64,000 bases of DNA, from assembly GCF_003334405.1 (NCBI RefSeq), contig NZ_QOWM01000004.1; one strand, 5' to 3'. The DNA is from Escherichia coli. GTDB lineage: Bacteria; Pseudomonadota; Gammaproteobacteria; Enterobacterales; Enterobacteriaceae. The notes below the pieces were generated by a model, which saw nothing but the letters and a program-made list of their open reading frames with translations, was not told where the DNA came from and made no database searches. A program made the translations under genes and the position numbers. This document shows positions 61,668-64,000 of this stretch, one piece after another; positions within the stretch are counted from its first letter, which is position 1; the number at the start of each line of letters is the position of its first letter.

Positions 61668-61700
61668 AAACGGGCGTATAACACGCCCGTTGTTTTATTT
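61668..61700 (+). terminator. intrinsic terminator after icd
   Basis: AACGGGCG-tataaca-CGCCCGTT hairpin followed by GTTTTATTT. Confidence 0.65.
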
Positions 61701-61747
61701 ATGTGGATATTATTAATAGCATATCGAGCATATTTATATGAAGCCCA

Positions 61748-62071
61748 TTACTTGAGCCCATATGGGCATATTTTTATAATGCAACTATTATGTAAACATT
61801 TATTTGTTATTTTGCTTTCTCCTGGAGGACACTCTTGACTGCTTTTGAGTAAACTCCATAAATCCTTGTTGAATGGTGCGATGTGATAAATAGTAATAGG
61901 ATATTCTTTATCCTTAAGGATAATACCAGACTTAACCGGTGTAAATATACTGCCAGGAGGGAGAAATATAGTAGATTGATACCAGATGATCATTTTCATA
62001 TTACCCCATATGGCTGAAAAAGATATACCACATGTAGGTTGAATTACCGTGTCAATTACTATCCACTTCAT
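61748..62071 (-). CDS. iraM: anti-adaptor protein IraM (RpoS stabiliser)
   Basis: 107-aa [21 protein letters not shown]... in AT-rich DNA, convergent with icd; size and position match iraM. Confidence 0.8.
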
Positions 62072-62532
62072 TTGTTATGTCTTATCCCACGGTATTTAAT
62101 ATGGTTCATTAGGATGTTTATTTCTTGATTTTGCATATGAGTATATTACCCCCCCCTCAAAAAAATAAATTAATTAAAATGATGGCTTATATAAAATAAA
62201 ATTTAAAGCAAGGAATCTCAATGGATGTTAAACAAAATGAGATTTTGTGAAAGCAATAAATTATTGACTTCGTTTTAGATTTGTTTAGCTATAATGTTAT
62301 ACATTCAAATGACTGAACATCCTGTAATTAAAACATAGCCTTTATGCTACTTTGTGCCAATTTGCTAAACATTATGGTTGCCTTTTTATATAACGATAAT
62401 AATGAATATAAGCATGACATGAGAATAAGGTTTCAATTTTTGAGTTATATAGGAATGATTTAACCTGTTCCTGGCTAAAATACATATAACCGGATGATGA
62501 CTAAACCAAAATACATGTGCGTTAAGTATTGA

Positions 62533-62561
62533 AACGGACGTGTGGCACGGCCGTTGTTTTT
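62533..62561 (+). terminator. terminator-like hairpin, diverged duplicate of the icd terminator
   Basis: AACGGACGTG-tgg-CACGGCCGTT (one mismatch) followed by GTTTTTAT; flanks homologous to 61650-61705. Confidence 0.5.
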
Positions 62562-62770
62562 ATAAATATGTTAACCGTTATAAAATAACGTATCAAAAGT
62601 CAAGTGATCACATTTCAAATATCAAGTTGATAGTATTAGTCTGGTGATTATTTATGGGTGACAATAAAAAGACAGTATTAATCATCCATAGAGATAGTCT
62701 CTGCACTTTTATTTCCATTATGCTAATGCCTTACTGAATTATGAAGCATTTCTTAAGTATCCAACTTTAG

Positions 62771-63175
62771 CTAGATTAATGGTTTATTATTTTCTACATC
62801 TTCAATATATAAAAGCGTATTATCAATGGCGTAGTAACTGCGTTTGTTATGATTAACATCAGTAACCCACCGGAAAACGCCCGCGCCTGCCAGTGTTGAA
62901 CAGTATTCCCGAAATGTAGATTTTCCGCAAATATGAAGCAATGCGGCCTCTTTTATTTTAGCAGGGTTCTTGGTCGTACTAACTTTTAACAGGTTCCTGG
63001 TTCCTCTTAATAACAAAACCGTATCATCGTGAGTAATAATTCTGATGTTATCCGTAGCCAGATAATAAATGTAATGTGCAATACGGTGATGTTTTAATTC
63101 TGAATAAAACCAGGAGAAGTTTTGCTCTTTTCTCACTTGCTCAAACATCTTTTGAAAAACAACGACCTGATCCAT
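62771..63175 (-). CDS. ycgX: DUF1398-family protein YcgX
   Basis: 134-aa ORF in AT-rich region, function unknown. Confidence 0.75.
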   Translation of the reverse strand: MDQVVVFQKMFEQVRKEQNFSWFYSELKHHRIAHYIYYLATDNIRIITHDDTVLLLRGTRNLLKVSTTKNPAKIKEAALLHICGKSTFREYCSTLAGAGVFRWVTDVNHNKRSYYAIDNTLLYIEDVENNKPLI

Positions 63176-63395
63176 CAGGATAATAACCTCTTGTTAGTTG
63201 TGAGACTGCGTAGTGTGCACGATCGGTTTTACCACTTCAATCTGGTCTGTCCTTTGGCTGTGATATGTACAGAGTGTGATAGAGGGAATATCTGAATTCT
63301 CCCGGTGAGCATTTTGCAACGGACCAGCTCCGGTACAAACGCTGTTGTGGGTTCAGATTATAACATTCTGTCTAAGGGGCGGGATAAAGGTGAAA

Positions 63396-64000
63396 TTAGG
63401 GGGCATGAAAGATGACTTTATAACCTTGCTCACCCCAGTGTTGTAAAAGTTCGTTTTGCCTTCTCGTTGGTGCCATGCCTGTCCAGACAATCAATGTTTG
63501 CGTCGGGAACAGTTCCGGGCGCGGCGATTCAATGGGATCAGCAAGAACAGAAATGTGCCATCCTGACAATGATAAACGCCATGCTTCCAGCCACAATCGT
63601 GCTCTCTCTTCAACATTCCACGCCATCAGAATGGCTTCTTTACCGGGCTTACGGCGCATTTCGAAAAGCGAGGTTGCTGCGTATTCAATTAATGCGCCGT
63701 CAAACATACTGCTCATAATGCGGGAGGTGTTGTGATCAAGCACGAGACGCTGGCGAACAGGAAGGTAAACATGATTAATCAATTGATCTACTGGGTACTC
63801 TCGACCCAGTGAAATAATTCTCGCGCGTAGTTTGGCAGGATTAGCCATGCGAAGAATTGACATCATCTCTTCTTGCAGGCGGCTCCAGTCATCTTCCGTA
63901 TCCTGGCTGGTGGTTTCCAGTAATGCTTTAACTTTGCCTACAGGGACGCCATTACTTATCCAACGCTTGATCTCTTCGATGCGTTGTATGTCTTCTTCAT
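63396..64000 (-). CDS. bluR: MerR-family transcriptional regulator BluR (YcgE), 5-prime end beyond window
   Basis: minus-strand frame stays open from 63396 to the window edge; the listed ORF 63396..63866 starts at an internal Met; upstream translation ...[27 protein letters not shown]... is MerR-like. Confidence 0.75.

Follow-up and report, generated by a model that had tools for sequence, protein, structure and literature searches.

A low-GC islet carrying iraM and ycgX beside icd in Escherichia coli is probably phage-derived DNA gathered at an e14-type attachment site

Lambdoid phages carry morons such as bor, lom and the genes flanking stx, a concept associated with Hendrix and colleagues. 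Elements of the e14 and phage 21 type use the icd 3′ end as their integration target (Hill, Gray and Brody 1989, as cited in PMC6379469 and bioRxiv 10.64898/2026.06.14.732165). Low Mg2+ or acid pH causes PhoP to induce iraM, and RpoS accumulates (PMC11825808, PMC9496106); IraM binds RssB and blocks the delivery of RpoS to ClpXP (PMC4045071, bioRxiv 10.1101/2023.01.07.523045), and both its PmrD-like fold and the IraM-RssB structure have been described (bioRxiv 10.1101/2023.01.07.523045). On the ycgX side, a genomic island, ycgXEFZ-ymgABC, has been predicted (PMC3309015; Tschowri et al. 2012, PMC3509220). Here we analyzed a 64,000-nucleotide stretch of an E. coli genome (contig NZ_QOWM01000004.1 of assembly GCF_003334405.1; hereafter, the window), near the right end of which a short AT-rich islet with iraM, ymgK, ymgL and ycgX separates icd from bluR. 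Most probably, this islet is DNA of phage origin that was gained horizontally and built up at the icd 3′ end, where e14-type lambdoid phages attach.

The islet consists of two small minus-strand cassettes, each lying past an icd terminator copy. The inner cassette, comprising terminator copy A, iraM with its promoter region and ymgK, is a strain-variable indel of 864 bp that ends at terminator copy B. The outer cassette opens with copy B and an attachment-arm motif of the e14 family, followed by ymgL and ycgX. The features of the locus, in order along the window, are as follows.

60395-61645, plus strand: icd, from its open reading frame (ORF) and transferred RefSeq annotation; e14-type phages attach at its 3′ end
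61654-61696 (hairpin 61669-61691), no strand assigned: terminator repeat copy A, from direct-repeat comparison, folding and a terminator scan
61748-62071, minus strand: iraM, PhoP-induced RssB anti-adaptor with a PmrD-like fold; guanine-plus-cytosine (GC) content 0.34
62072-62517, minus strand: iraM upstream regulatory region, ~30% GC, with two PhoP-box candidates
62328-62372, minus strand: ymgK, a 14-aa small protein (MFSKLAQSSIKAMF); RefSeq annotation transferred from locus L001
62518-62560, no strand assigned: terminator repeat copy B, which matches copy A at 36/43 positions across a distance of 864 bp
62561-62598, plus strand: flank resembling an e14-family attachment arm, with the motif GTTATAAAATAACGTATCAAAA at 62577-62598, just past copy B
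62608-62718, minus strand: ymgL, a 36-aa small protein, from annotation
62717-62745, minus strand: sigma-70 promoter-like site TTCATA-17-CATAAT just upstream of ymgL, from a consensus scan
62771-63175, minus strand: ycgX, a DUF1398 protein, homologue of lambda p78, ybcV and ydfO
63176-63254, minus strand: conserved leader/promoter block of the ycgX family, GACCAGATTGAAGTG...TGCACACTAC
63255-63395, no strand assigned: spacer from the ycgX cassette to the bluR stop codon, where by composition the low-GC islet has its right edge
63396-64000, minus strand: 3′ part of bluR, cut off by the end of the window; it heads the bluR-bluF-ycgZ-ymgA unit

The islet differs sharply from its surroundings in base composition. 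Over the 1.75 kb from icd to bluR (61646-63395) the GC content is 0.342, as against 0.516 for positions 1-61645, and it falls to 0.311 for 61646-62770 and to 0.302 for the iraM segment (61697-62517). An earlier sequence-only reading of this DNA had described roughly 70% A+T at 61.7-62.8 kb, setting in abruptly after the icd terminator, and sliding-window GC agrees: values of 0.50-0.52 in icd drop to 0.27-0.35 across 61.5-62.85 kb, remain at 0.37-0.39 up to ~63.3 kb and return to ~0.49 in bluR, the change starting directly past the terminator hairpin at 61669-61691. Composition across the locus is clearly non-uniform. Among 500-bp windows of the 64 kb (mean GC 0.511, standard deviation 0.045), the islet reaches the minimum of 0.288 and is the sole segment below 0.39, which upholds the claim that it is the only odd part of the window. 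Milder dips to 0.40-0.42 occur at 9901-10400, 26701-27300 and 33901-34600; these are the rluC-rne, hinT-fhuE and bhsA-comR intergenic regions, which belong to core genes and are not accessory DNA.

Codon usage is deviant as well. With the 45 long ORFs of the window as reference, GC at third codon positions gave z scores of -4.8 for iraM, -3.5 for ycgX and -3.4 for ymgL, and a self-referenced codon adaptation index gave -4.0, -2.3 and -6.0, respectively. The only long ORFs in the islet are iraM (107 aa) and ycgX (134 aa), separated by a gap of 699 bp, in keeping with the few long ORFs reported before. Their identification is also sound: the 2.6 kb around the islet is 100% identical in DNA to E. 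coli K-12 AG100 and strain 1919D3, the annotated genomes, and the two products fall into NCBIfam NF007393 (IraM, 172.6 bits against a cut-off of 121) and the Pfam DUF1398 family (YcgX).

The presence of the islet varies among strains. Within-species counts were made over 5426 complete E. coli genomes, each of which has a match to the icd part or more. Of these, 3944 (73%) carry the iraM segment (61700-62515), which is absent from 27%; the ycgX segment (62575-63390) is found in 5048 and is absent from 7%. In 1036 genomes the icd terminator runs straight into ymgL, without iraM. A further arrangement, seen in O157:H7 and others, places a prophage integrase directly past the terminator, and the whole stretch through bluR is missing.

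The junctions between these arrangements center on the duplicated terminator. Copies A and B form a 43-nt imperfect direct repeat with 36/43 matches, as against a simulated maximum of 29/43, and the homology between them is confined to ~45-55 nt beginning right after the icd stop codon; the insert is thus flanked by duplicated 3′ ends of its target, 864 bp apart. Copy A is predicted to be a strong two-way intrinsic terminator serving icd on the plus strand and iraM on the minus strand (fold energies of -18.4 and -17.3 kcal/mol, z -4.2 and -4.7 on the two strands), and it is identical to the single terminator copy of iraM-less strains. In CFT073, the type strain DSM 30083 and AR_0089, that single copy meets the right flank of copy B exactly. 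It follows that iraM, together with ymgK and the iraM promoter region, forms an indel with the repeat at its borders. Copy B is a weak hairpin here (-11.7 kcal/mol, z -0.3) and, as judged from its predicted fold, has decayed in this lineage. In other lineages its stem is identical to that of copy A, and the main difference is a GG loop replacing AA; the loop is GG in every copy B seen and AA in every copy A or single copy seen. Moreover, four types of junction, namely the iraM arm, the iraM-less junction, the prophage int arm and IS200C, all break at one point, the end of the T-run ...CCGTTGTTTT|.

As an observation on the same position, the insertion sequence IS200C sits directly past the copy B T-run in two divergent E. 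coli, O102:H6 (L060, ~2367) and O139:H1 (L061, ~2358), and an IS200-type remnant lies directly past a different icd terminator in a Citrobacter sp. (L057, ~6150). These cases suggest that the terminator end is a recurrent IS200 target.

The flank of copy B provides the link to icd-targeting phages. The motif GTTATAAAATAACGTATCAAAA occurs once in the window, with 0.00 matches expected, and in 350 kb of fetched loci, counted on both strands, it lies only 16-19 nt past an icd-type terminator. Its occurrences outside the window are the left junction of e14 in K-12, a site in a deep Escherichia lineage, and one in Salmonella that adjoins an integrase remnant. Because it is restricted to sites past icd-type terminators, the ymgL-ycgX cassette can be said to begin with an attL-type scar of the e14 family, and arm-type repeats near the core are accordingly present on the copy B/ycgX side. 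By its sequence, the motif appears to be a diverged version of the icd-phage arm. Resident elements show the same architecture: the O157 prophage at icd carries its own A-type terminator copy, then CTTCCCCAAAA repeats, then int, and e14 carries its own variant hairpin followed by TGTTAGGCTGCTAACGGTTATCAAAATTTTATCAAAAAAAGTTATCAAAA. The islet is hence tied to mobility functions by the icd site, the terminator duplication and the arm motif. Plasmid copies were also considered as evidence of mobility and were set aside, since these records carry icd too, several are megabase-sized and all are typed as non-mobilizable.

The arrangement in K-12 with e14 places these layers in order. The genes run icd - e14 - icd' pseudogene (168 bp) - iraM - ymgK - ymgL - ycgX - bluR, and the layering is icd - e14 - icd' - A - iraM - B - arm - ymgL - ycgX. 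The window has an intact icd and no e14 prophage, yet it carries iraM, and the K-12 map puts iraM just beyond e14; we conclude that iraM lies outside e14. A published statement that iraM is 'on the e14 prophage' (PMC4045071) disagrees with the K-12 map. The Icd C-terminus in the window (61540-61645) is the Glu/Glu variant, as reported for the icd/icdC chimera after e14 excision, which fits an e14-free or e14-cured K-12-like strain.

Homologues of both larger genes reside in phages. The IraM homologues found (34 clusters) all belong to E. coli or E. albertii. Each copy examined outside the icd site is part of a lambdoid prophage, reverse-oriented, between Q (with or without stx2AB) and nanS-like/holin genes. 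In Stx2 phages, a homologue with 65% identity adjoins stx2B, and E. albertii and E. coli prophages also carry IraM-like copies. The DNA similarity between iraM and phage is 72.6% and is restricted to the coding sequence (CDS). YcgX is ~44% identical to lambda/HK630 p78, whose gene adjoins bor, and 70% identical to the product of a gene that lies between Rz and Nu1 in an E. albertii prophage; such YcgX-like phage genes sit between Rz/bor and the terminase genes. IraM matches PHROG 4407 and YcgX matches PHROG 413. For both genes, most of the more distant relatives examined lie in lambdoid prophages, between conserved modules and in opposite orientation, as morons do, and each cassette also appears to have its own promoter and terminator, given the copy A hairpin on the iraM strand, the position of copy B following ymgL-ycgX, and the promoter-like sites. 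The sequence-only reading had called the islet accessory, horizontally acquired DNA, a view now borne out by its strain-variable presence, the phage homologues of both genes and the attachment-site scars.

Comparison across genera separates the islet from its neighbors. Salmonella, C. koseri, C. freundii and the deep Escherichia lineage share the conserved upstream side of icd (rluE-nudJ-mnmA-hflD-purB-phoPQ), and each has different DNA on the downstream side. BluR orthologues with 60-84% identity are present in Citrobacter, Klebsiella, Kluyvera, Cedecea, Superficieibacter and Silvania; their loci keep bluF and ycgZ, and most keep a detectable ymgA, and no icd, ycgX or iraM was found within 8 kb of them. 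This cross-genus scan covered a collection of GTDB representatives, from which the BluR query retrieved no Escherichia record. An exact search with the terminator pattern gave 0 matches in the same collection, from which Escherichia is apparently absent; the E. coli type strain carries both the pattern and bluR. The islet is therefore not conserved at its position among relatives, with the exception of one unclassified Citrobacter that has ycgX at icd.

Two of these loci merit description in their own right. In Salmonella enterica (L066, 6252-6400 and 6697-10026), the DNA downstream of icd contains an e14-type arm motif, an integrase C-terminal remnant of 14 residues, detected by tblastn with the O157 icd-prophage integrase, a DUF3626 gene and genes for pertussis-like toxin subunits (Pertussis_S1 and S2S3); a decayed prophage with toxin genes occupies the same site here. 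In C. freundii (L068, 10873-10939), a fragment of 67 nt that matches the icd 3′ end (window 61481-61547) at 92.5% identity lies 4.6 kb downstream of icd, beyond dedA-like, dinI, flavin mononucleotide (FMN)-reductase and arsRBC genes. The fragment resembles an icd' pseudogene and would mark the integration of an island at icd in this species as well.

We infer the following order of events, including the arrival of the iraM module by integrase action. Phages targeting the 3′ end of icd would have integrated here more than once, each bringing a fresh icd end and terminator and shifting the older scar rightwards, and each prophage would have decayed by deletion to a useful moron, first ycgX and later iraM. 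An earlier element of the e14 family would have left a terminator, the arm, ymgL and ycgX. A later element would have left terminator A and iraM, with the displaced older terminator becoming copy B, and e14 in K-12 would represent a third layer that is still intact. According to the literature, the present-day role of the inner cassette would be to respond to low Mg2+ or mild acid through PhoQ/PhoP, whereupon IraM is made, RssB is bound and RpoS is spared from ClpXP; H-NS would otherwise silence the AT-rich promoter region.

Several results weigh against this account. No icd coding fragment was found to the left of copy B, where the flanks align to icd no better than shuffled sequence does; at most ~12 nt there resemble the last icd codons, and e14-type integration would leave a displaced 3′ coding fragment of ~165 bp beside the older terminator copy. 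Because this fragment is missing, we do not class the iraM module as a canonical e14-type scar. The arm motif was not seen by copy A on the iraM side, the tblastn search of the window with the O157 integrase returned nothing significant, and no integrase, excisionase or phage structural remnant was found in the islet. Phage DNA matched nothing of the iraM promoter or flanks beyond the iraM CDS and short pieces. An attP-like junction, with the left flank of copy B, one terminator and the right flank of copy A, was found in neither IMG/VR nor the JGI metagenomes, although an exact-pattern search makes this a weak negative. The ycgX side raises points of its own. Another Escherichia species has its nearest YcgX homologue, with 77% identity, at the unrelated yedEF locus, where no phage genes lie in the vicinity. 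In the unclassified Citrobacter the ycgX homologue next to icd is 71% identical, has the conserved leader and is separated from icd by an IS200 remnant; for this reason the ycgX part is either older than E. coli or was recurrently acquired here. In one transcriptome study, ycgX was de-repressed in an hha/ydgT mutant and not in an hns/stpA mutant (PMC3686432). Finally, we considered the deep-lineage Escherichia locus L064, with a single A-type terminator followed by a flank resembling that past copy B, as an unoccupied outgroup proving the polarity of insertion. It was rejected in this capacity: the flank is the e14 attachment arm and the site is occupied by an e14-like element. It is also the only near outgroup obtained.

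The direction of change is accordingly where another explanation fares best. The iraM-less alleles, in B2 strains such as CFT073 and in others, could be secondary losses by precise deletion between the terminator copies, and we regard this as a sizeable possibility while leaning the other way. Two direct repeats with 864 bp between them form a classic substrate for deletion; divergent lineages share an iraM module of 93-96% identity, which points to old age; and no unoccupied outgroup was obtained. However, the single copies inspected, from two divergent iraM-less E. coli backgrounds and several prophage-flank contigs, have the A-type AA loop and the A-type left half; with GG in every copy B, each loss would have had to cross over in the last 10-15 nt of the repeat. 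Furthermore, this explanation concerns polarity only, and an original insertion that duplicated the terminator would still be needed.

Entry of the iraM module without a phage integrase seems unlikely. It could have involved, for example, a RecA-dependent single crossover of a circular fragment with a homeologous icd terminator or a replication template switch, the terminator serving as a short homology patch. This would account for a repeat limited to the terminator and devoid of icd coding sequence, for the lack of an integrase remnant or arm motif by copy A, and for the attP-like junction not being found in IMG/VR or the JGI metagenomes. On the other hand, 43 nt at 84-90% identity are a poor RecA substrate, integrases demonstrably use the site and phages carry copies of exactly this terminator, and all the rearrangements break at the T-run end, as fits the end of phage-borne homology. 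In a separate reading that we hold to be doubtful, the icd terminator hairpin itself, and not the e14 core within the icd coding sequence, might be the attachment site of a second class of integrative element that delivered iraM and duplicated the terminator; IraM-like PmrD-fold proteins might then be phage connector morons, located beside stx2 in Shiga-toxin phages, through which prophages raise host RpoS, and the chromosomal PhoP-IraM link might be a domesticated copy of this strategy.

That the islet is native and vertically inherited, its AT-richness reflecting regulatory function or mutational bias and its absence from other genera reflecting loss, is very improbable and close to refuted, for the leader-bearing ycgX at icd in the unclassified Citrobacter is outweighed by the extreme deviation at third codon positions, the variable presence within E. 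coli, the confinement of IraM homologues to E. coli and E. albertii with every non-icd copy examined in a prophage, the YcgX relatives in prophages and at an unrelated chromosomal locus, the different DNA downstream of icd in every lineage examined, and the arm motif past copy B.

The individual genes can be described further. IraM residues 1-78 are identical to PDB 8TWD. A Pfam-A scan gave no family match for IraM in the release used, and precomputed annotation based on a newer Pfam release files IraM relatives under PF11183 (PmrD). Upstream of iraM, PhoP-box candidates with 2 mismatches each lie at 62115-62131 and 62271-62287 (P for at least two matches ~0.03 in a local simulation); as a control, the same search recovered the known phoP promoter box GGTTTATTTAATGTTTA at 55780-55796 on the minus strand. 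The two upstream candidates are suggestive only. phoPQ itself (~54-56 kb) lies only ~6 kb upstream of icd and hence near the PhoP-dependent iraM, a closeness that is probably coincidental. The stretch that leads from copy A to the iraM 3′ end holds an imperfect direct repeat of 17 nt (GCATATTTATATGAAGC / GCATATTTTTATAATGC), at 61728-61744 and 61766-61782, 38 nt apart. Both small proteins have been observed, YmgK by epitope tagging and YmgL as a detected protein (PMC6001520). PADLOC defence models gave no match for IraM, YcgX or YmgL, and an Rfam scan returned only sub-threshold chance matches.

YcgX belongs to the DUF1398 (YbcV/YdfO/YcgX) family by its Pfam PF07166 domain and its YdfO fold. 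The predicted structure is confident (predicted local distance difference test score 91) and resembles YdfO, and its structural neighbors are functionally uninformative; with low confidence, YcgX might be a phage-derived, protein-binding accessory factor. The unit common to the ycgX contexts is the CDS plus a leader of ~80 nt (GACCAGATTGAAgtGATAAAAcCGATcgTGCAcACTAC...), which was compared between window positions 63176-63254 on the minus strand, L005 1150-1240 and L051/L054/L057 ~4920-5000. This leader is kept in four contexts and in the HK630/lambda homologue, and the sequence beyond ~63254 is unrelated. It is more conserved than the CDS, even for the lambda/HK630 homologue, whose protein is only ~44% identical. 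Folding revealed no stable RNA structure in the leader (z +0.7), and from its conservation it looks like a promoter or operator.

An association with H-NS is reportedly the subject of a 2012 paper by Battesti et al., going by its title. The spacer between iraM and ycgX is flagged 'HNS' in a table from genomic systematic evolution of ligands by exponential enrichment (SELEX), and the same table lists there, with the same hexamers as the promoter-like site upstream of ymgL, a constitutive RpoD promoter (PMC3946193).

Much of this is already published: what iraM does, how variably iraM and iraL are distributed, that ycgX has homologues in prophages and, as has been suggested, a phage-mediated origin, the predicted island, and YmgK and YmgL. 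The terminator duplication, the arm scar and the correction concerning e14 were not found in the literature searched; they are small refinements and do not overturn existing knowledge. Their interest lies in the position of iraM, which is among the connectors between the PhoPQ signal (low Mg2+, mild acid) and the general stress sigma factor RpoS and whose carriage affects stress and acid phenotypes. Recognizing it as a stand-alone, phage-type cassette in 73% of genomes, outside e14, clarifies differences in RpoS regulation between phylogroups. The duplication and the scar also illustrate how serial phage integration at one site may leave domesticated regulatory genes behind, and the published ycgXEFZ-ymgABC island is refined in that its foreign part is limited to iraM-ymgL-ycgX.

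Set beside known systems, the islet shares its target with e14 and phage 21, in which the element brings a replacement icd end, its own terminator and a repeated GTTATCAAAA arm, and displaces the old end rightwards. It differs from them in having no int, no xis and no icd' fragment by copy B, in a repeat made up of the terminator only, and in an iraM side without the e14-type arm. Like lambdoid morons, its genes are small, AT-rich and reverse-oriented, with their own promoter and terminator, IraM-like genes occurring by Q/stx2-lysis and YcgX-like genes by bor; unlike phage morons, they stand alone in the chromosome without a phage, and iraM is wired to the host PhoPQ regulon. As in H-NS-silenced islets and the predicted island, the DNA is AT-rich and strain-variable, with prophage-related neighbors and an HNS-flagged spacer, whereas the bluR-bluF-ycgZ-ymgA unit, which is conserved in other genera, has a near-normal GC content, and only iraM-ymgL-ycgX is compositionally foreign.

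At the level of the protein, IraM shares the unusual fold of PmrD (~1 Å root-mean-square deviation from PDB 4HN7) and, like PmrD, is PhoP-induced, binds a receiver domain and stabilizes a phosphorylated-like state (bioRxiv 10.1101/2023.01.07.523045). PmrD protects phospho-PmrA, whereas the target of IraM is RssB and the outcome is stabilization of RpoS. IraL (CFT073, potB island), with 58.9% amino-acid identity (PMC4045071), and RssC (Salmonella) are homologous RssB anti-adaptors that are likewise strain-variable and encoded in island or prophage DNA; iraM differs from them in its locus, in its regulation, theirs being log-phase and sigma-70-dependent, and in its mode of contact with RssB.

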